Assembly (NCBI RefSeq): GCF_004010195.1
Contig: NC_057749.1
Span: 19,801,946-19,857,078 of the forward strand
Direction of reading: 5' to 3'
Length of the DNA stretch: 55,133 nt
DNA from: Chiloscyllium plagiosum
Lineage: Eukaryota
A model generated the notes under the pieces. The model was given only the letters and a program-made list of their open reading frames with translations. It ran no database searches and was not told the DNA's origin. Every line of letters starts with the position of its first letter. Positions within the stretch are counted from its first letter, which is position 1. Position numbers and translations under genes: made by a program. Shown here piece after piece: positions 4,248-53,335 of the stretch.

Positions 4248-4486
4248 GAGAAAGTGAGGACTGCAGATGCTGGAGATCAGGGTTTAAAAATGTGTTGCTG
4301 GAAAAGCGCAGCAGGTCAGGCAGCATCCAAGGAGCAGGAGAATCAATGTTTCGGGCATAAGCCCTTCTTTAGGAATGAAGTCACCCACCTCATTCCTGAA
4401 GAAGGGCTTATGCCCGAAACGTCGATTCTCCTGCTCCTTGGATGCTGCCTGACCTGCTGCGCTTTTCCAGCAACACATTTTTCAGC
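4248..4486. mobile_element. Penelope-derived fold-back element (inverted pLTR arms) with a hammerhead core
   Basis: 15-bp TSD taaatca(c/a)ttaatag at 4233-4247 and 4487-4501. About 95-bp inverted arms with a short loop. Confidence 0.85.
4396..4423 (+). ncRNA. Minimal type I hammerhead ribozyme core (Penelope-type)
   Basis: CTGAAGA-A-GGGC-ttat-GCCC-GAAAC-GTC contains the CUGANGA and GAAA boxes, a 4-bp stem II and a palindromic ACGT stem III. Stem I is weak. Confidence 0.65.
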
Positions 4487-23490: not shown

Positions 23491-24751
23491 CCTTTTAGAA
23501 GATGTTTAATATCACTTACTCTCAGCACTTATTCCCTGGTCCTCGTCATTATAGATTATTGTTCTTAAAACTGTAAACCACAAAAAAGACCTCACAAATT
23601 ATAAACTAGAAAACAAAGGAAAAAGTGAAGCAAAAAGAAGAGATTGATGTAATTTTAACTCCATAAATATAAGATGTTCCCTGACTGTTCCCCTCCTGTT
23701 AAACACTTGTTTAATTGACATTATGTTAAAAATAGCTGGTGAGACTGGTGGGATATCACCATGAACTCTTCTGCATGAGGCCTGGACCATTTTAACATCT
23801 GAGTCTTAATCTACCTGTTAATTAATTTATTGTTTACTACCTGATGCCAGTGCAAACGACTAAAGAACCAGAAATTAGGCTGAGCTTTTCCTGTTGATCC
23901 TCTTGTCTGCGTTTTATAGTCTTGTCACACTCACTCCCTGCTGAGTTAAGATCAGGGGGTTGTAGTCAGGTCCCAGCATCAGATGATTCCATGCACAACC
24001 TAAAACCAGAAATACCAACATAACTCAAAGAAACAGGCTCAAAAAATAAAAATGCCTTTGAAGTGATAATCATGTATGGCAATGTTAAAGAGGACTACCA
24101 GTGGTAAGATCATTCATAGCCAATATGGAAGTCCCATTGGCAAAGACAATTGAATCAAAACACAAACTGTCACAGGAATGTGAGACTGATAATTTAGGAC
24201 TGTTAACAATTTCCACAGCACAAACAGCACAGTCAAATGGCAGGTGTAAATTATTGTCTGTCCTTGAGGGATTCCTGAAGTAAGCTCTGGTCTGTCTAAG
24301 AACTTAGTTCCCTGCCAAACCCAAGTGAAAAGCATTAATTAAGAGAGAGATTTTCTGGATAATATTTGTGCTGAGGCACAAGATATAATTTTGCCAAAGG
24401 GAGTAGTTGAGGCGGTAATCTTAAGGGACAAAATGTCTAAATAGTTATGGTAAAAGGGGACAAGAGGGGCAGTAGGATTAGCTTTACAAAGGGTCAGTAC
24501 AGCCACAGTGCGCTGAATGGCCCTATCTGTGTTCTAAATGACAAAGCCAGGGAATACTAAGAACTATGTGCAGAAGCCAAGATTATTTAAAACCTCAGAC
24601 TTTAATCACTATTGGTAATCTTGTGTTTAAGCATAAATGCAGCATTTTCTAATTGAAGATGTTCAGCTTTGCTGATTTTTTGAGTTTTTTTGATGTGCTA
24701 TCAAACCTCCTTTAAATAAGCTGCCCTGCTTTATCTATTCTTTCCTGGTAG

Positions 24752-24902
24752 GTTCGCTGCTCGAACAAACAGTGGTGGTGCTTTGGTTCTTGTTACCCTG
24801 GTAACCAAAGAAGGCGGAGCTGCTCAGCTAACGATTAACTGTGAGAAGATGGTGATTGGCACGATGATGGTGAAAGACATAATGCAGGCACTGACTCAGT
24901 GA
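24752..24902 (+). CDS. ap3b2: ap3b2 last coding exon ([49 protein letters not shown])
   Basis: Acceptor tttcctggtag| and TGA at 24900-24902. The C-terminus [16 protein letters not shown] fits AP3B2 rather than AP3B1. Confidence 0.96.
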
Positions 24903-25094
24903 TGCAGCTGATTTGTCTCTCCTTCTGACATGGAGGGGTTGGGGTTTGAGAGTCGTCTCTCACTCTGCTCTTACAGCCTCTGCAACCCCTCACAGCGCCT
25001 GGCCACTCAAGAAACCACTGGCTGCAGGAGAAACAGCCCAACTGAAATATAAGGCATTCACTTAGTTACGACTGAAGCTTCTCCAATATCCAAA

Positions 25095-25510
25095 AACGTA
25101 AGGAGCAGGAATAGGCTATTTGGTTTTTTGAGCCGGTTCCATTATTCTCTACAATCATGGCTGATCTGATTGTGTCCTTGACTCCACTTTCCTGTCTCCA
25201 CAATCCCTCCCCACCAACCCTAAAAGGCCTGACCTCCCACTACTCCTTGGAGACAAGAAATCCTAATTTTCAATTTGTGTCCCTTAGTTCTAATCTCCAC
25301 CACATGGGGACAAAATCCATTCAGCATCCACTCTATCAAAGTCCCTCAGAATCCAATTTCAATAAGATCAACTTTCATTCTGCTAAACTCCAATGACTTC
25401 AGGCCTAAATATCTGTCCAATATTTCCTCATAAGACAACTCTTTTATTGCAGGAGTCACTTGAGTGATTCATTTCTTACTGCTTCCAGCACAATGATATT
25501 CTTTCTTAAA
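25095..25510 (-). mobile_element. CR1 3' fragment in the putative ap3b2 3' UTR
   Basis: CR1-type tail (taaggagcaggaataggctatt...atcatggctgatctg...ttcctcataagacaac). Confidence 0.65.
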
Positions 25511-27202
25511 TGTCATGTGTGGTGAGATCCTGATTAACTTGCTGAAGGATGACTGAATTCTTCACAGTGTTGTCTTCTAAAAGTTGAGGAACTAGCTCTT
25601 TGTCCTGCCCCACCCCACCCCACTGAAGAATTTGATACTGCTTCAATTTTTATTGGTTATTAGGGCCCCTGTATCAGAGAATTTCCATTTCTGTGTAAAA
25701 CAACATGAAGTCAATGTTTTACTTGATCAATTTTAATAACTCTTTAATAATTCACTTTTGGAATTCCATCTCTAAACCACTCTGGCTCTCTTACCTCCAG
25801 TAATACCTTCCTCTTTTTACCAGGCTTTTAATGATTCTGTCCCACTGCTTACTTGATCTTCTGCACTGGTTTCACTTTAACAGCGATATTCAGTCTCCTG
25901 GGTTGGTCTCCTATAAAAAATGGTTGCCTATCCAATATATATTAAATTGAACCTAAACCATCAGCAAACAAAAATGCAGCACCTCAGTTTCATAAGACGT
26001 TTTGCTTGACAATCCTAAAATACTGCATGACATTGTAAGAATCAATATTTTCCAGTTTGCTAGTAAAGTTTTTTTTTAGAAATGCTTTTTATAGTAACAA
26101 CTTTTAACAATGTTACTACATTTATGGAGGGCATATTTTTGGAAACCAGTATTTCTCCATTTTTTTCTGGGATTGAGAATTCCTCACTGTTCTCCCCAGG
26201 CAGCAGCCAGTGAAGCAAGCTTCAGGCTTGTACTGGGACAGGAAATGGTGAGATATTGTGGGTACTTGCATTGTCTCTGAAATACTTCCTTGGTTATACT
26301 GGAAGAGTCATACTGGAGACAAAACATTAAGTCTGGTTCTCTCTCCACAATTATGCCAGACCTGCTGAGTTAGCTTGCAGATCTTTGTGTTTGTTTGGGA
26401 TGTCAACATCTGTAGTATTTTGCTTGTATCCTTGATACCTCCTTGAATAGTTGATGGTCAGCAGCCATCTGAACTGCTTTGAAAGAGGAAGGATCCACCC
26501 ATCAAAGTTAGATCTGAGGGAGAGAGCCCAGCATTGAGACAGGACAATAGGAAATGCTCCAAGTGTGAATCTGGAGAATGAAGGAACTAGATATAGAGGA
26601 ATTATGTTTGCGTGGAGACTGTAAGCAATTGTTCCAAATGGCCCTGGACAGGATTTGTGCTTGGACCTGAGAGAGGTCAAAAAGAAGGTGATGACATAGC
26701 GACATTTTAGAACAGTAATTCAGAGACTCAGTCTAATGCTGTGGCATCAAGGGCTCAAATCCCACCACAGCAGCTGGTGAAATTTTAAATTCAATTTTAA
26801 AATCTGGAATTGAAAGCTAGTCACAGTAATGGTGACCATGAAATTAACATTAATTCTTATCAGAACCCAACTGATTCACTAATGTCCTTTAGGGAAGAAA
26901 ATCTGCCATCCTTATGTGATCTGACACACAGTAGTGTGGTTGATTCTCGACTGCTGTCTGAAATGGCCTAAAACACTCACTTCAAGGAAATTTAGAACCA
27001 GTGATGTCCACATCCCAAGAAAGAGTAAAGAAAATAAATCTGAACTATTAGATAATTCATTGGAGACAATTAAGCCACAGTTAAAGGACAATCATGTATG
27101 TGCAACAATTTCATTCCATGAAAGAACTTTTTAAAAAAAGACTAAGGCTTGTAGTAATCACTTTTATTGATAACACAAACAGTCATGTGGCTCCAGTTGG
27201 CC

Positions 27203-27316
27203 AATAAAGTGTTTGGCATGAAGGAGTTAAGGATCATACAATTTTAAAAGCCAAATAGGTTTCCAATGAGAGCTTAATTTATCCAAAAAAATTCCCAAGT
27301 CTATATTTTTAATAAA
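27203..27316 (+). terminator. Candidate polyadenylation signals for ap3b2 (AATAAA at 27203 and 27311; also AATAAA at 27033 and ATTAAA at 25941)
   Basis: Canonical hexamers 1-2.4 kb downstream of the stop codon. The sequence alone cannot show which one is used. Confidence 0.35.
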
Positions 27317-28740
27317 ATAATAGTCAATCACTTCTGATGTTTCACAAAGCTGTCAAAACCTTTAGCTGAAGGTGTAATCTTTAGCTGAAGTGGGCCTACT
27401 GAAAGACATTCATTGGATCAAGTCATTCAGTTCAGTCCTCATTTGAGAGTGATACCCTTTATTCTCTTTTAATCTATACAGTAAATTCATCTGTCTTTGT
27501 AAATGTCACATTGTAATTGGAACTCGCTGAGCTGCAGCCTCCACCCGAGAGAATGTAAATGCAACCTAAGAAACCACAAAGACATCAACTCTATGTTAAA
27601 CTTTGTAACTGCTGTCTCACATGTTATTTTAAAACTCAGAAATGAAATTGGAATGTCCTCACCAGGTATAAATTTGGGCAAAATTTATGGACACCCTGGA
27701 TTGCCCAAGCATCAGGAACTCCTCTTGTCCTTGCTGATTGATCCAAAGGAATATGGGGTGCAGGTTTGGCACTGACTTAGGTATAGGACTTGGTGGAAAG
27801 ATGATGTAATTAGAAGCCTTTGACCTTCATTCCAGGTTTTTTGGTTATGGTTTACAACATTAACTTTCAATCTTGCTGAGGTATCATCCAGGCTGTGGAC
27901 CTATTCTCCCATGTTTGGGAGTTTGGTTCATGAATGCCAGGGTATGTGCTGGAGGGCCTGCACACTGTTGTCCATGCGGGCTAAACTTCCAGGTATCACT
28001 GAAGCTTTAATCTGTGACCATGACTGACCCACTTTCATTGTATCGACACAAGGACCTTCAGCAGAGCATTTGCTGATGGAAACTTTGCCCTAATATGGGG
28101 AGACTTAACACGTTTGGCTCTCCCTTTTGCATTGCTGTTAGCCAGTGGTGTGGGCTGAAAATGAGAAGTAGAGACACGCAAAAAGCGAAAAAAAATTAAC
28201 TCCCACCCACAAACTACACACATGACATCAACCTTTTGGATACTCCTCCATAGACAATTCCCATTGAAAATGTGGATTTATGTAATAATAATTTAGAGAT
28301 AGTTGTGTTTAGAAAACCCGCCACCCCTTTCTGAAAAAACGTTCCCACACTATTCTCATCCATTCTTGGTACAAGACTGAAAATGTTCATTTCTTGCACT
28401 TCTTAAATTACATGTAATTTATGCTGAAACAGAAAACATGCAACCATAATGTCTCTCTGGGTAAAGTTTTTAAGCACTTGACTAATAGGGCTTTCTGGAA
28501 ATTATAAGTTTAACTGCACAAAGCTGATCATTATAAAAACGACTGAAAGTTAAAATGGAGTGTTGGCCACTTGAGATTCCATTTGCAAAGGAAACAAATT
28601 TGTGCTTTGGTTCTCATTCCCAATAATGTGGTACTTATTCTCAGCACAAACTTATTAAGCCTTATCATGGAATCATAGAACAGCACTGCACAGAAACAGA
28701 CCATTCAGCCCATCTGGTTTTCACTGTCTGTCTTGAAGAG

Positions 28741-29369
28741 GGTTGGACAAAGTTAAAAATCAGATAACACCAGGTTATAGTACAACAGGTTTATTTGGAA
28801 GCACTAGCTTTCCAAGCGCTGCTTCTTCATCAGGTGGTTGTGGAGCAGAATCATACGACACAGAATTCAAAGCAACAGAATTGCAGTGTCATGGAATGTA
28901 ATGTTAAACAAATTTAGCTTGAGTCTTTCATCTTTTAGAATGATCATGTTAGTTTTGGTTTCTTCAAATGTAAATCCCAGAACTTTTTTTAAAGTTACAT
29001 TCTCAAGATAACTTTTAACTATAGGTGCCATCTCAGCTCAGACAATGCATTGAAGGTGTGAAGTTAAAGTCTGTCTGTGTCCCAATTTAGGTCAGACTGA
29101 TTCTATTTCTAAAGTGGGATTTACAGAATCTTACATGAATTATGAAGTTTTTGAGCAAAATAAAATGTAATTCTGCAAGTACAAATTCACCCCACAAAGT
29201 TATATATGTGTGTGTGTGCTGTATCGTACGATTTTGCTCCACAACCACCTGATGAAGAAGCAGTGCTATGCAAGCTAATGCCTCCAAAATAAACCTGTTG
29301 GACTATAACCTGGTGTTGTGTGATTTTTAACTTTGTCCACGCCAGTCCAGCACAGCTCCTCCAAATCAG
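28741..29369. mobile_element. Penelope-derived element with inverted pLTR arms (second family)
   Basis: 11-bp TSD gtcttgaagag at 28730-28740 and 29370-29380. About 105-bp inverted arms (28745-28850 / 29235-29339). Confidence 0.85.
28802..28836 (-). ncRNA. Minimal type I hammerhead ribozyme
   Basis: Minus strand reads CAC-CUGAUGA-AG-AAGC-agc-GCUU-G-GAAA-GCUA-GUG: stem I CAC/GUG, stem II AAGC/GCUU, palindromic AGCU stem III and a CUA cleavage triplet. Confidence 0.7.
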
Positions 29370-29764
29370 GTCTTGAAGAGCAATGCAATTTGCACCCTAT
29401 TCCTCCATTTCCCTGATTTATTTTGGTTTCTCAAAAAAACAGAGCAAGATATAAAAGACTTTTTTCAATGACTTCACCATTCAATTTATTTTCCGGCATC
29501 CAGAGTTCTGTATTGAGGGAACAACGTCAGGAAAAGAAGGCAATTCAGTCTCTCAAGCTTGCTGCAACATTGGATCAGATCTATATCACCAACTTTGCTT
29601 TAAAAATTCCTGAGTGCTTTGTCGAACAAAAAACCGAATGCTCTCTGTCTTCAAAATTTCCATCACGCTCAAAATCTACATTGTTCACAGAGGAAGGAAG
29701 TTTCCAATTTCCACCTGTGTGTCTGTCTATGTGAGTGCACGTGTGTGTGTCTACATTTCTGTGT

Positions 29765-29960
29765 GTGTCAGTTAGCTCAGTTGGCTGGTTTGCAATGTAG
29801 AGTATTGCCAACAAGCACAGGTTCAATTCATACACCAGCTGAGTTTACCATAAAGGACTCTCTTTCTCAACATCTCCCTTTGCCTGAGGTGTGGTACCTT
29901 GCAGGTTACGTCACCTCTCTCTCTCTCTCTTTAGTTAGAGAGCAGACTGTGGTGACATTA
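29765..29960 (+). mobile_element. tRNA-derived SINE (second copy ~33565-33770)
   Basis: A box tagctcagttgg, B box ggttcaattc, and shared body gttaccat.aaggactct...ctgaggtgtggtaccct. Confidence 0.65.
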
Positions 29961-31021
29961 CCTTTTATTGTCTGTCTGTCCATGTGGGTGGAAATTGTTT
30001 CTCTGATTTCACTATTTAATGGCATGACTCTAATATTCAGGTTTTGACGTAGAACTAGTAAGGGAAAGTGTGTGTGACTGTATGTGGTGCACACGTGTGT
30101 GTGATTGTCATCCTTCACCTTTCCCTATACTGATGGACAGAGACCATTCAGAAGTCTGTTTTCAAAATGTTATGTATGAGATAACATTGTGGGTGAAAAT
30201 TTCTGCACTTCCCGCCCCCACAAAAATAGGTCAATGTGAGAAATATCAATAGCTGTTCCATTCCTCAACATCATGGTTCCATGTCTGACCTGCCTGAAGA
30301 TTTCACATTTCTCTCTCTTCATGTTGCTCAATGAATTTGGTCAGAACCAGTTTGTTTATAGCAACCCTACTCCTGTTTCCAACACTGCTGGGCTCATGGG
30401 AATTTTGCTCTCGCTTTGTCATTCATTATGTAGGATAAGACAATTGTCCCTGTGCACCATCCCTTCCAAAGATTTCACTCCAACATGCCCTTAGCATTTC
30501 CTGAAATCATGGTTAAAGTTCACTAGAATTACACACTGCAGTGAGATAATGCGAAAATACTGACAGTTATAAAATCCTGATTTCCCCATTTTCCTCTAAG
30601 AGTGAGAGGGAGGCCCGATTCTTATGCAGTTCACTGTGTTTAATTTGTAACTAGTTCTTTGTTGCTTTGCCAGTGGTATCCTTCCAGTGGCAATGTTTAC
30701 TTGTTACATCGCTGTCAACCCCAACTGCTTGGGCAGATTAATTTATTGCACAAAAACGTCAAGTAAAAAGCTGCTGAGAAACTCGAAACCTTGTTCATCT
30801 CTGATGTTTATTCATTGTTGTGGGTTTGTTTCTGTATCTTCAACTATATTTACACAACTGCCCCATAAACCAAGCTGAATCAGATCGCTGCTCTAGTTCA
30901 ACAGTGTGTTATTTACAACTGTGGTTCATTACAAAAGTGGATAGCACGTCAAAAGTACTTGGTCGGCTGAAGGACACCCTGCGATTGTAAAAGTGCTGTT
31001 CAATGCAGCTACTTCCTTGTG

Positions 31022-31528
31022 GAGAAAGTGAGTACTGCAGATGCTGGAGATCAGAGTCGAGTGTGGTGCTGGAAAAGCACAGCAGGTCAGGCAGCATCCG
31101 AGGAGCGGAGGAATCGACATTTCGGGCATAAGCACTTCATCAGGAATGAGGCTTGTGGGCCGGGGATATCTATTGCATTATCAGATACCTTCCCCCCACA
31201 GGCCCATCCCCCTCTCATTTGTCTCTCAGACGCCCGGCCCCTAGTGTTGAGAATGTGGTGTTGGAAAAGCACAGCAGGTCAGGCAGCATCTGAGGAACAG
31301 GAGCATTGACGTTTCGGACATAAGCCCTTCATCAGGAATGAGGCTTGTGGACCGGGGATATCTATTGCATTATCAGATACCTTCCCCCCCCCCAGGCCAT
31401 CCCCCACTCATTTGTCTCTCAGACGCCCGGCCCACAAGCCTCATTCATGATGTCCGAAATGTCAATGCTCCTGCTCCTCGGATGCTGCCTGACCTGCTCT
31501 GCTTTTCCAGCACCACACTCTCAACACT
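31022..31528. mobile_element. Penelope-derived composite: two direct ~192-bp units plus an inverted arm, with tandem hammerhead cores at 31116-31143 and 31308-31335 (minus)
   Basis: 15-bp TSD agctacttcct(t/c)gtg at 31007-31021 and 31529-31543. The direct and inverted repeats can be read in the sequence. Confidence 0.85.
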
Positions 31529-32324
31529 AGCTACTTCCTCGTGTCAAGAGCAAGTTCCATGCCCAAGGTATATCACCAAATTCCAGATCTCAGACCAACC
31601 CGTTGAAAGAAGCTGATTAACCACTAGATGTTGCCTTCAGTAAAAAATATCTGGAGATTTGCTTCTGGAGAATGGGGCTATGGTTGAGGGGCATTGGGGC
31701 TCAGCCTTAATTTGGAATAGGTTTGTCTCTTCAATGTAAATTCAGAAGAGGGAGGCCTGAACTTAACCATCTGAAAGGGGTCATGGTTAAAAATAAGAAG
31801 TCTTCCATTTAAAATGAAGATGAGGAAATTTTTTTTCCATGCTGTGGATGTTTGGAATTATGTACCTCCAGAGAGTGGGGGAAGCTGACTTGTTGATTCT
31901 TTTTAAAGCAGACACAATATGCATCCCAAAAGCATCTACTACTTCTTTCCCATATAATAGCTCTAAATTAAATGTGGCCTTAAGCTAGAGATTCCATATA
32001 CATTTGCAGTGAATTCATTTAGTTCAACAATGTCAACCTTTCCTGGTTCTCAGTCAGCTAAATGTTCCTTGTTGGCAGGTTTGCAACTGTTCTTTGCTGC
32101 CTCCAACACTACCCTCTCTCCCTGCCCCTTGCAGCTTACCATTTGCAGATTCTCTCCCACACCTTGAGTCACTTCATCCCACCTCTCCTGCAACCTCCAT
32201 CTCTCCTGCCTCCCTTTTAGCATCTTTTTTCAGATTGGTGCACTCCACGATTGAATTTTCCAAGTGATTTGGTAGTTTTCAAGGGCAGATTGACATGTTA
32301 CCCCCATGTATTTTTAGTGCTGAT

Positions 32325-32395
32325 AATGCACACACATGCGCATGCAGTCATTCACAAACACATATAAACACACACATGTGCACACACACAAACAC
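32325..32395. repeat. Imperfect (CA)n microsatellite
   Basis: gcacacacatgcgc...acacacacatgtgcacacacacaaacac. Confidence 0.6.
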
Positions 32396-34859
32396 CTTCT
32401 GTTAGCAATGGATACTGAAATAATTTGGAGTACGCCAGAATGGGAATAGTGACTGATGCTGGGATCCTCCTGATCTCTAGACCAGGACTACTTTTACTTG
32501 TTCAACCTTCAACAGAGTATGAAAATGGATATTCATGAAACATAATATAGTTCATTCAGACCTTATCAACATTAAGTACGCATAATGAATAATAAAATTC
32601 TCACATTGTGGATACCTTGTTCCCCTGTAAATCTGATAACGTTTAGTGTAGTTAAGGTGCTGAGTAAAAACTTCTTATTTGCGTTATACAGTTAATTTCC
32701 CAAGATTACTGTAATCTATTGGTGCCTGTAATGTTTTTCTCTTAAACTATCTGAGGTCAAATACAATGCAGATTATCATAAAATTGCTCTTGCCCCCTCT
32801 GCCCACTGTGTATGTGCTGGCCCACTGCAAAAGCAATTCACCAAGAACCACTCGCCTGTCTTCCCAAAACCAAACAGAATATTTTTCGTTGATAATTATC
32901 CAACTCTTTTGGAAATCATGATTGAATGTACCTCCACCACAGTCTCAGGCACACGCTCCAAATCCTAATCACTTGTTGTGCTGCCATGACACTGTTTATT
33001 CATTTGCCAATCACCTTTAATTGGTATCCCCTATTTTCAAATCTTACACTAGATGCAATGCAATGTCTGATTTCCTGTACACTGGGCACTGGTAATGCTA
33101 CCTTTTTATTCTCTGGCATCAAAGAAATGGTCATTTATGACACTCAGTTTACAAACACTGTCCAACTTTCTGTCAGGGGATCTGCAGCTCCTGACTTTTA
33201 AGGACACAAGCCATTCGTTTAAGCAAAATTCCACCATTTGTAGGGGACGGGATTTGTTCTTCGAGAACCTTACAAAATGGCAATCACGTTTATAATGAGA
33301 GACAATCGGGTCAGTTCCAACTATCCAAAAGATTGATACGGTATACAGTAGATGATAAAAAGCAAGAAAGATGAACTACTGAAAACATTGTTTAACAAAA
33401 TAATGAATATATAAAATTTGTCACAGTCACCCTTACCACAAGACTGTACAATAGAATGTGATAATTGTAACAATAATAAATACCCACATGCAAACACTCT
33501 CCAATAACCACACCTAAGGAGACGACACTTATACAATGCATACTTTCTAATCCTGGAGAGGGTTGGCTAGTTCAGTTGGCCCGACTGTTGGCTTGTGATA
33601 CAGAGTGCTGCCAGCACAGGTTCAATTCCCAAACTGATTGAGGTTACCATGAAGGACTCTACTCAACCTTTCCCGTCATCTGAGGTGTGGTACCCTCAGG
33701 TTAAATGACCACTTTCCATAATTAGAGATCAGCTCTAGGGTTTGGTAAGACTATTGTGTGTAAGACTCTACTTCTAGTCCTGGGACATATAGTAATGAGC
33801 ATTATAGACACCTGATGTATCTTAGTTTTGTTAACAATTAAGTGGCACTTTTTCACAGACACTTGCTAATTTTTTTACACTTTCTTCAAATTCCTTTTCC
33901 TGAAAACCACAGACAAGCAGAAATTAGTCCTCAGTGAGCAAAGCATAATGTTTCTTCCTAATAAGCAAATTAAGAAATGGTGTGATCTGCCCTGAGGATC
34001 TGAATTCAGTACTTTAAGGAATGGAGAGATAGTATTGTAGCAGTCATCTCATTCAACTAATAAACCGGAACCTCAAACTAATATTTTGTGGACATGAGTT
34101 GAAATCCCACCATGGCAGATAATGAAATTTAAATTGAATAAGTATCCGGAATTAAAAGATAGCCTAACGGTGACTATATAACCACTCTTGAACATTGTAA
34201 AAATCCAGTTGGTTCACTCATGTTCTTGATTTAGCCGACCTGGGACTCCGGATTCACATCATTACGATTGGTGCTCCATCCCACAAGGTAACTAGGGATG
34301 GACAATAAATGCTAACTGAGCTAGAAATGTTCACATCCCATGAAAGTGTTTTTAAAAAAGTAGGCGTAGGATTGAAATATTTTTCAATAGTGTTGACTTG
34401 ATTAAGCAAATGAGGAATTGATGTATATTCTACTTGATTGTGTTTCACTGTAAAATAGCTTTTGTAAGGAAGAAAGCCATGGCCTACCTCAAAACTAAGA
34501 TCATGGGCTTATAGTTTAATGGCTGTTTTAATGATCGAGGCTAATGTCAAAATGGCTTGAGATAAAAGACTTTTACTCAAAGACACCGCTATATTTTTAA
34601 ATGGTTTAATTTTCTACAAAATATGTAACAGGCCTATGTATATTAATGTTATATGGCTGTTTTGAGCTCTAATTTGTTTCAGACATTGTGGAATCACCCA
34701 TGGTTCTTTGAACTAAAGTATATTGATAGATTTTGGAGAACACATAGATTTATCAGTTGGGACTTTAAGGCATTATTATATACTTGAAGGTGACACTAAA
34801 TATTCAAACAAGCATGAATTGCTTTGATGCCACAGTATCTTGGTAGAGATCTATTAAAT

Positions 34860-47113: not shown

Positions 47114-49134
47114 CTCTCTTTCACTATCATTCTGTAGATAAATCTTGGCATTGTTTCCAAAATTAAATCAAGCTCACAAACATTTCAGTTCCTGCATCCA
47201 TTACATTTTCAAATTCTACAAGCAGAAAATACTGAAACAAAAACAGGAACAATACTTTTTGCCTCAAAAAACGCTCAAAATTCAGATCCCGTCCAAAAGA
47301 TTCCTCTATGTAAATTAAAACATTTAGGAAAATGGTTAGCATCTTATTTATTAGGTATTTCTCTGGTAGTCTCAGAGCCAACAGCTCAGTTGGCATGTTT
47401 ATGAGTGTGAAAGATTCGGTGAAAGTGATACTGGGTCGATCAATTGTAACAGCTTCCAGTTTACCCTGCCACCCATCTCATTGGCTGTGACCATCTCTGC
47501 CCATCTTTCAGCTGAAGCTGATTGGCTTTCATAGACTTCAGCCTGCCCCCCAACTTCCACGATTGGACAGATGCTCCTGCTTTCTGAGTCATCTGGTTGG
47601 GTGATATTTACAACCCTCTCTTCCCCAGGGGGGAGAAGCATTTGAGTTTCTTTAAGATACTTGGTTTGGAACACTGCCTCATCAGCTCAAAGTTACAATG
47701 CTTGACCTCAATGCAGTGGCTTATCTGGAGGACCTCCATAATCTCCTGTTTCCTCTGGACGATGTCTGGGTTTAACCTCATGTCTGAAGGAGGGCACCTC
47801 CAACATTGCAGTACATCCTGGATTTGTGCTCAGGTCTGGGGAGATCCAGTGATCTGGTCACTTCCCTCTCCCCACTCCCTCAGCTGACCAAATATCAGGA
47901 GTGTTTGGCTAAATGTAATTAAAACTTTGAGAAGTAGTCCATTACTTAGTCTATGGTCGTCACTGTAAATGATACAAGGAAAATCCCAAAAATAGCTTAA
48001 CATCAGGAAATGGGAGGGCGGGAAGAAGTCAAGAAAATTACAATCCCCAGGGAAGTAGTACTGAGCAAATAGTTGTAGTTGCAAGCTGATAATCCTCTGG
48101 GTCTTCATGGACTTCATCCTAGGGGGTTAAAAGAAGTAACGAGTGAAACAGTTGACGCATTTTTTTTACTTTTCCAAAATTCCCTAGATTAATGGAAGGT
48201 TCCATGAGATTGTAAAATAGTGAATGTAAGTCCTTTTCAAAAAGCAGAAAACTACAGGCCAGTTTGGTCCACATCTGTCACAGGGAAAAGGTTAGACGCT
48301 ATTATTAAAGACGATGTAGCAAGTCACTTAGAGAAGTTCACGGTATTATTCAGGCAGAAATAACACAGTTTTGTGAAAGGGAAAATCATGCTCAACTAAT
48401 TTATTGGAGTTATTTGAAGAAATAACATTTGCTATGGATAAAAGGAAATTGGTGGTTGTCTTTATCTGGATTTCCAAAAGGTATTTGAGAAGGTGTCTCA
48501 GCTAATGTTATTGTAGACAATAAGACTCTTGGTATGGGGGCAACATATTGACATGGGTAGAAGATTAGCAAATAGAGAGAAAGCAAAAATGGGTCATATT
48601 GTGGTTGGCAAAATTAGTGAATGGTGCACCACAGAAGTCAGTGCTGAAGACTCACTTTTTAAAATTTATATAATTTACTTGGATGAAAAGACCAAAGGTA
48701 TGGTTGCTAAATTTGCTAATGACACAGAAATAGGTGGGAAAGTGTATTGTGAAGATGATGCAAATAAACTACAAAAAAAATTAGTTAACAAAAATCCAGC
48801 CAATGGGGTATGATGTGATGCAATGTGAAATTGTCCATTTGGCAGCATATTATCAAAATAGTGAGGACATTTTATCTAAATACAGAGCCCTGTGATGCAG
48901 GAGGATCTGGGTAGCCTCATGCATCATTTGTAAAAGATTAGTGTGCTGGAACAGCAAGCAAGTAGGAAAGCTGATAGAATGTTTATTTTGAGGCGAGCTG
49001 AATAAAAATATGGAGGTTAAACAGGGAGTTGGTGAGACCACATCTGGAGTACTGTGTATGGCATTAATCTCCGTATTTAAGGAAAAACATAAATGCAGTT
49101 CAGAGAAGGTGTACCAGACTGATACCTGGAATGG

Positions 49135-49566
49135 GACACTTCCATATCCGCCACAAATTCACCTGCACCTCCACACACATCATTTATTGCATCCGCTGCA
49201 CCCAATGTGGCCTCCTCTATATTGGGGAGACAGGCCGCCTACTTGCAGAACGTTTCAGAGAACACCTCTGGGACACCCGCACCAACCAACCCAACCACCC
49301 CGTGGCTCAACACTTTAACTCCCCCTCCCACTCCACCAAGGACATGCAGGTCCTTGGACTCCTCCATCACCAGACCATNNNNNNNNNNNNNNNNNNNNNN
49401 NNNNNNNNNNNNNNNNNNNNNNNNNNNNNNNNNNNNNNNNNNNNNNNNNNNNNNNNNNNNNNNNNNNNNNNNNNNNNNNNNNNNNNNNNNNNNNNNNNNN
49501 NNNNATTCTCCTGTTCCTTGGATGCTGCCTGACCTGCTGCGCTTTTCCAGCAACACATTTTCAGCT
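49135..49566 (+). mobile_element. Young 5'-truncated Penelope element: GIY-YIG endonuclease segment and pLTR
   Basis: FTCTSTHIIYCIRCTQCGLLYIGETGRLLAERFREH (GIY-YIG with Cys/His motif). Perfect 16-bp TSD ctgatacctggaatgg at 49119-49134 and 49567-49582. Confidence 0.93.
49379..49504. other. Assembly gap (N run)
   Basis: Run of N bases. Confidence 1.
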
Positions 49567-53211: not shown

Positions 53212-53335
53212 AATTAAAAATCACACAACACCAAGTTATAGTTCAACTGGTTTATTTGGAAGCATGAGCTTTCGAAATGCTACTTCTTCATCAGGTGGTT
53301 CAACCCCAGTCCGACACCATCTCCTCCAAATCATG
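53212..53335 (-). mobile_element. Penelope pLTR fragment (second family) with a hammerhead core at 53266-53294
   Basis: 12-bp TSD gcactta(t/c)gtaa. Minus strand reads CUGAUGA-A-GAAGU-agc-AUUUC-GAAA-GCUC. Confidence 0.75.

Follow-up and report, generated by a model that had tools for sequence, protein, structure and literature searches.

The 55,133-nt window (the whole stretch of DNA that was analysed) contains an exon at 786-1010 that is 100% identical to the bamboo-shark AP3B2 protein, in keeping with the initial annotation, which had taken the DNA to be from a shark. The last AP3B2 codons lie at 24750-24899 on the + strand (tblastn), coding ends at 24899, and the last exon runs on into a long 3′ UTR (Table 1). 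The UTR was traced with contigs of run X16, from a related organism (organism C), which was taken as RNA on the tool's guess, backed by a contig that starts at the splice acceptor. These contigs have a depth of 28-105 over 24749-30703, compared with 3 for the intron and 5.7 for the stretch 31500-31960. In this related shark the AP3B2 3′ UTR appears to be at least 5.8 kb long and to carry several repeat insertions. Neither AATAAA nor ATTAAA was found between 29288 and 31967 in the window. Approximately 320 nt beyond the traced UTR lies a 507-bp insert (31022-31528).

The insert is enclosed by 15-bp direct repeats, identical at 14/15 positions (chance expectation ~3e-6, with 49 offset pairs allowed). 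Tandem Repeats Finder reported a repeat of period 192 at 31062-31433, with 1.9 copies and 91% matches. A tail, three arms (A1, A2 and A3) and two spacers (S1 and S2) make up the insert, with two minus-strand hammerhead cores 192 nt apart and no intact core on its + strand. Arm A1 is 91-93% identical to its best copies elsewhere in the genome. The inverted-repeat match of arm A3 extends over 31426-31530, and a core remnant within it (31447-31463) has lost 11 nt between two ATG triplets and carries a C3-to-A change. The target-site duplication (TSD), the two direct units of ~192 bp, the core in each and the inverted arm with its deleted core had all been described in the initial annotation, and each was recovered here.

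Table 1. Features of the studied locus (positions in the window) and of two further tandem loci (positions in the fetched loci).
Feature	Position	Strand	Basis or location
Last exon and long 3′ UTR of AP3B2	24752..30703	+	tblastn, run X16 contigs
Left target-site duplication, 15 bp	31007..31021	+	direct-repeat comparison, chance estimate
PLE 'tail', 37 nt, confined to arm A1	31022..31058	-	arm start positions in family
Arm A1, PLE pseudo-LTR (pLTR) end; element sense is the minus strand	31059..31164	-	
Hammerhead core 1, minimal type I	31116..31143	-	
Inversion junction and spacer S1 (element's own 3′-UTR piece, orientation opposite to A1)	31165..31240	+	
Arm A2, probable reverse-complement copy of arm A3	31241..31356	-	shared derived columns
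Hammerhead core 2, minimal	31308..31335	-	
Spacer S2, second copy of inversion junction and sense 3′-UTR piece	31357..31433	+	
Arm A3, inverted pLTR arm that lacks the tail and runs on from S2	31426..31528	+	
Right target-site duplication, 1 mismatch	31529..31543	+	direct-repeat comparison
L067 tandem	L067:233-516		contig C1
L068 tandem	L068:254-583		contig C1

Over its first 145 nt the insert is a member of a very large repeat family. The arm was matched by BLAST at ~12 other places within the window, and one 28-nt core pattern had 38,917 exact matches in the genome against 0 for a reversed control. In other family copies the arm is followed on one strand by a pyrimidine-rich UTR and, beyond it, by the C-terminus of a GIY-YIG endonuclease. 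Three of four decayed family fragments were matched by Pfam (RVT_1, E=1.4e-6; GIY-YIG, E=4e-4), both domains scoring below the gathering score. By these features the insert is the 3′ end of a Penelope-like element (PLE), from a truncated EN+ copy. The Penelope-type minimal hammerheads invoked in the initial annotation are likewise borne out. Other copies of the family are contiguous with a C-terminal GIY-YIG and a reverse transcriptase (RT). A CxCxxCxxC stretch before the GIY-YIG domain in the L010 frame matches the CX2-5CxxC linker motif of PMC8557442 and suggests the Neptune clade. A full-length autonomous copy of the family was not found, the protein search returning two shark proteins. A GIY-YIG endonuclease fragment of a PLE also lies within the window, at 49068-49532 (-), beside an assembly gap.

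Among 110 arm matches in 225 kb, a sample biased by having been chosen by family matches, 59 start at family position 1-5 and 31 at 36-42. These two start positions, 37 nt apart, correspond to the PLE 'tail', an optional stretch of 30-40 nt at one end of the pLTR described in PMC3846280, PMC8557442 and PMC11167929, the last of which attributes it to two internal RT start sites. TAG or AG was seen by eye directly before the tail end in many of the loci L001-L030, and several tail-less arms end by TAG; either an endonuclease target preference or a longer element end is possible. Among the first 100 exact core matches listed on contig C1, 15 head-to-head pairs no more than 300 nt apart were counted by eye, against 0 co-oriented pairs within 1 kb. 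The head-to-head inverted pair is the usual multi-arm form of this shark PLE family, a layout that fits the descriptions in PMC3846280 and PMC8557442. Of the marks of PLE insertions, the studied locus has both an adjacent inverted 5′-truncated copy and a TSD.

On the minus strand, core 1 reads CUGAUGA-A-GUGC-UUAU-GCCC-GAA-AUGU-C (31143-31116) and core 2 CUGAUGA-A-GGGC-UUAU-GUCC-GAA-ACGU-C (31335-31308). Rfam recognised no hammerhead at these cores when the window was scanned, even at E<=10, as may be expected of a minimal variant. The features of the minimal hammerhead (min-HHR), namely the core boxes, an extra nucleotide after A9, a G10.1-C11.1 pair and a palindromic loop 3, are present in core 2 and in the family. 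In core 1 the loop-3 palindrome ACGU has decayed to AUGU, and there is a U.C mismatch at pair 2 of stem II. Stem II of core 2 is intact, with one G-U, and a G-to-A change at position 1.1 breaks its first stem I pair. Helix I of the min-HHR is set at 4-5 bp (2 bp in D. virilis); that of the family consists of 2 bp, a conserved U.U mismatch and 1 bp, with a third pair in 0/28 intact cores, and A2 is without pair 1.1.

The core pattern was unmatched in 33 of 61 aligned family copies. Exact copies number 471 for a stem II variant with the compensating change and 684 for the left-side change without it, in a comparison that covered these two classes. The motif family is a real hammerhead lineage, and the subfamily with the compensatory G-C to A-U change in stem II is apparently older. 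CUGAAGA, not CUGAUGA, is present in ~94 of 100 listed exact cores (for example at 4396-4431, +, in the window). A second family of minimal hammerheads, with a longer stem II and an AGCU loop-3 palindrome, is found at 28797-28833 and 53258-53294 (-) in the window, the former copy lying antisense within the traced AP3B2 3′ UTR.

In a double hammerhead formed by the two units, the expected cleavage sites are after 31116 for core 2 and after 31308 for core 1, and both must be cut to release a monomer. Stem III of such a dimer is fully pairable (A-U, C-G, G-U, U-A). In the dimer, core 2 has its intact stem II and a 2-bp stem I, and core 1 combines the U.C mismatch in stem II with a C.A first pair of stem I; the change in A2 permits an alternative stem I of 4 bp, which is shifted and leaves a C bulged out. 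When the minus-strand RNA of the whole insert was folded, the complement of A3, which is the first arm to appear in an RNA that enters from the right, was predicted to pair with A2 over ~105 bp, locking core 2, with P<=0.03 for stem II of core 2 and P=0.000 for stem III of the dimer. With the inverted arm omitted, stem II of core 2 was predicted at P 0.99, but the CUGAUG box was paired and stem III was still absent. Forcing the double hammerhead cost 22-58 kcal/mol, a range calculated with no known active dimer as control and with tertiary contacts ignored. The constrained-fold penalty was also large at two other tandem loci (57.5 kcal/mol at L067 and 45.4 kcal/mol at L068) and therefore does not single out the studied locus. 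Sequence and predicted folding together argue against the release of a 192-nt monomer. In the published work, dimers of minimal PLE hammerheads have low in vitro activity (PMC4209133), dimer cleavage was recorded in 1/9 tested (bioRxiv 10.64898/2026.07.22.740005), and a PLE hammerhead cuts only with PLE protein and is dispensable for insertion in vitro (PMC11167929).

Each 192-bp unit consists of an antisense pLTR arm joined, at an inversion point, to a sense spacer of ~75 nt that is the family's own 3′ UTR. The unit, which the initial annotation had not recognised as an inversion chimera, is not contiguous element sequence. Among 28 other loci fetched with the spacer, none has it inverted next to an arm, and the adjoining arms there are native and on the same strand. 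A search of the genome for the same unit and junction elsewhere had been proposed in the initial annotation; the inversion junction that it named occurs exactly twice, both times in this insert, and the sole other match at <=3 mismatches differs in the junction bases. The junction between unit 1 and unit 2 occurs once in the 3.56 Gb genome at <=3 mismatches, and a DNA search with the whole insert gave no tandem in the 40 scored of 10,669 candidates, which by itself is weak evidence. Confinement of the tandem unit to this locus was one of the two refuting conditions set in the initial annotation, and the junction counts bear it out. Inversion points vary among family copies, with gaps from -3 to ~990 nt, and so are formed anew at each insertion; the duplication of the inversion junction is therefore younger than the junction itself. 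One candidate sibling, L002, has the arm, the inversion and the same resumption point, yet shares none of the derived bases of the spacer (by eye) and was rejected as an independent insertion. The point in the UTR at which its hairpin insertion (L002:1464-1798) resumes the sense strand is close to that in the studied insert, and the two suggest a preferred inversion point.

Comparison of the arms revealed an unequal relationship, also missing from the initial annotation. Substitutions amount to 14.0% between A2 and A1 and 11.7% between A1 and A3 (end region included in both), against 7.6% between A2 and the reverse complement of A3, which differ by 8 substitutions and the 11-nt deletion. The two spacers differ by 2 substitutions and 2 gap events (2.7%). 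In 7 alignment columns A2 and A3 agree against A1 and the family majority, although several of these shared states are CpG-type or junction columns and all but one occur somewhere among the 61 aligned family copies. A1 and A3 are grouped by a single column, which is a CpG site, and A1 and A2 by two, both of which are the inversion junction itself. Three internal A2/A3 changes coincide at 3 places genome-wide, two of which lie in this insert, compared with 73,985 occurrences of the common form; the third carrier (L066) is an ordinary copy with a tail, and no tandem was seen in the 420 nt inspected. Moreover, the first two bases of A2 are the complement of 31529-31530, where the right TSD begins. 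These shared bases point to A2 being derived from A3 and not from A1, an ancestry that gene conversion between A2 and A3 could mimic.

The reading that we favour, at a probability of about 0.72, is that the locus is the result of one DNA-level template-switch duplication after insertion, and is an ordinary relic rather than a self-cutting mobile RNA family. The product of the duplication is seen directly, and from it we infer the template-switch mechanism. The process would have begun with a simple hairpin insertion of the form tail-A1-S-A3, which is common in the family, and the two inverted arms of ~105 bp would then have aged. A single replication or repair event with two template switches would have followed. 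At the first switch the nascent + strand would have quit its template at the end of S and copied the right arm backwards, beginning two bases inside the TSD, to give A2. At the second it would have re-annealed at A1 by arm homology, after which S, A3 and the flank would have been recopied, for a net gain of 192 bp that put two cores in tandem by accident. All three cores would have decayed afterwards, and the decay itself is seen. No microhomology of more than ~1 nt is visible at the first switch, which counts against this path. In DUP-TRP/INV-DUP rearrangements, the switch other than the one inside the inverted-repeat pair reportedly falls at a junction without homology. A one-off template-switch duplication had been offered in the initial annotation as an alternative origin, and the private junctions and the apparent copying of A2 from A3 speak in its favour.

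Timing of these events is soft, with 7.6% between A2 and A3 but only 2.7% between S1 and S2. A contig of organism B enters the left end of the insert with 31 differences in 1,282 nt, and a contig of organism C covers the right end with 13 differences in 456 nt. Both organisms are ~2-4% diverged, and since their contigs reach into the ends of the insert, the insertion predates those splits; the contigs bear on the insertion and not on the duplication.

The AP3B2 3′ UTR is the sole transcript seen near the insert. Read-through RNA from AP3B2 would be of the + strand, that is, without an intact core. A search of sequencing runs listed no RNA run with the sequence, a result that argues neither way. 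In run X21, a poly(A) library sampled at ~2% of the run and a depth of <2, the few reads in unique bins are all of one orientation, consistent with a + transcript. No minus-strand reads were seen in the unique flanks, and no reads of either orientation at 31709-32500, which is weak evidence at this depth of <2 and in a poly(A) library, which would miss small circles. Most of the reads placed within the insert stem from other copies of the family (98% of X21 reads continue unlike the locus) and are uninformative on the locus.

Co-oriented core pairs were also sought by eye in a second list of 100 consecutive exact cores on contig C1, where 2 were found, 145 and 165 nt apart; the frequency of tandems given here is based on these two lists of 100. 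Both, L067 and L068, are private duplications of a hairpin stump. The L067 unit (spacing 139-145) includes apparent host flank, and the L068 unit (spacing 165) includes the start of its own TSD. Their duplications are 99% identical internally, so that they are either young or assembly errors. Three loci with three different units speak for hairpin-prone DNA duplication and not for one mobile unit. Such pairs may number in the hundreds in this genome, an extrapolation from 2 events with a wide range. Other co-oriented arm neighbours, with different junctions, were noted at L047:1565-1801, L046:696-1081 and L051:1426-1680, some of them starting at or near the hammerhead.

Duplication after insertion has to be weighed against assembly of the whole direct-direct-inverted structure at integration, by a PLE reverse transcriptase jumping on its own cDNA ends, which would still leave a one-off, inert locus. 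Complex tandem and inverted PLE insertions are known (PMC8557442, PMC3846280), a purified PLE protein can cut both strands of the target and extend them (PMC11167929), the start of A2 coincides with the edge of the TSD, which is the expected nick position, and the divergence of A2 from A3 (7.6%) is not far under that of A1 from A3 (11.7%, end region included). However, arms copied from one template should begin identical, and three internal substitutions are common to A2 and A3 but missing from A1; we regard this origin as unlikely. Quite unlikely, too, is a doubling of A1 and S by slippage or unequal crossover, with A2 later gene-converted by A3. The plain tandem duplications of hairpin stumps at L067 and L068 provide a precedent, and A2 and A3, ~70 nt apart, are able to pair, but the match between them ends exactly at the unit boundary and takes in two bases of the TSD, and a conversion tract would have to stop just there.

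The initial annotation had proposed a non-autonomous, non-LTR retrozyme, in which a minus-strand dimer would form a double hammerhead, yield a 192-nt monomer or circle and be integrated whole by PLE enzymes. Within one TSD pair there are indeed two type I cores, co-oriented and 192 nt apart, the unit size is within the 170-400 nt of PMC7229834, and stem III of the dimer can pair. As judged from its core boxes, the locus may fit the operational definition in bioRxiv 10.64898/2026.07.22.740005, a hammerhead motif in two consecutive tandem units. Against this, the unit is a single-copy inversion chimera with junctions unique to the locus, and one of its copies derives from the inverted arm and the TSD, which would be absent from an RNA intermediate. 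The damage to stem II and stem I of core 1 in the dimer, the lack of minus-strand reads in the unique flanks of X21 (~2% of the run, depth <2) and the cleavage of a single dimer in the nine of that preprint weigh in the same direction, and mobilisation as a retrozyme unit is highly improbable. An assembly artefact, a mis-joined hairpin written twice, is barely credible: the assembly has 101,977 contigs, there are gaps in the window and the insert is not bridged by any contig listed for an independent run, but the copies of A2/A3 and S1/S2 differ by substitutions, a deletion and gaps, which a mis-join would not produce. The locus is real and ordinary, and most likely inert, neither mobile nor a source of 192-nt RNA.

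As such it is of little importance, a single case among tens of thousands of PLE stumps that also carries a local duplication. What modest value it has is that of a readable fossil, the order of events being preserved in its three arms. Taken with L067 and L068, the locus shows that pipelines looking for 'tandem repeat plus hammerhead' in sharks will score private duplications of hairpins as active retrozymes. A derivation of animal retrozymes from PLE pLTRs has already been proposed in bioRxiv 10.64898/2026.07.22.740005, and if duplications seed real retrozymes, sharks would be good for catching that transition. The stronger proposition, that hairpin PLE stumps are duplication-prone as the birth step of animal non-LTR retrozymes, at perhaps hundreds of loci in this genome (2 pairs per 100 listed cores, 38,917 cores), and that this locus is a newborn still able to release a chimeric 192-nt RNA with the aid of PLE protein, we consider very unlikely. 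A literature search gave no paper on the hammerheads of this shark PLE family, although the preprint may list this shark or the family in its supplements.

Of the known systems, the closest are EN+ PLE insertions (Arkhipova et al. 2013, PMC3846280; Craig et al. 2021, PMC8557442; Frangieh et al. 2024, PMC11167929), which share the 37-nt tail on one arm, the head-to-head inverted arm, the TSD, the hammerhead in the pLTR and, in longer family copies, RT with a C-terminal GIY-YIG. In the published layout an ORF or passenger lies between direct pLTRs, whereas here the space is taken up by 3′-UTR sequence of the element itself, inverted and doubled along with its junction, and the inverted arm is the source of the middle one. 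The cores resemble the minimal PLE hammerhead in their CUGANGA and GAAA boxes, the extra nucleotide between 9 and 10.1, the G10.1-C11.1 pair and a palindromic loop 3 suited to dimer folding. Unlike it, stem II here has only 4 bp and stem I 2 bp and a U.U, and both cores are further damaged. The 6-bp helix I and loop-loop contacts of the canonical type I hammerhead, in the sense of PMC7229834, are absent from the cores of the locus. Metazoan non-LTR retrozymes (Cervera and de la Pena 2020, PMC7229834; Li, Clavereau and Pollet 2026, bioRxiv 10.64898/2026.07.22.740005) are alike in a type I core per tandem unit of 170-400 nt, a PLE pLTR origin and a long TSD, and the locus does have two consecutive units each with a type I motif, the core boxes intact and the stems damaged. 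The preprint also reports tandem hammerhead repeats in the one chondrichthyan genome that it covers, with a mean consensus of 363 bp. In contrast to these retrozymes, there is one locus here and no family, and half of the unit is antisense to the element. The DUP-TRP/INV-DUP rearrangements of Grochowski et al. 2024 (PMC11293582) share with the locus a switch within a pair of inverted repeats and an additional, inverted copy flanked by direct ones. They extend over kilobases to megabases, whereas the present event involves 200 bp in a shark retroelement stump, and the likeness is one of analogy and not of membership.
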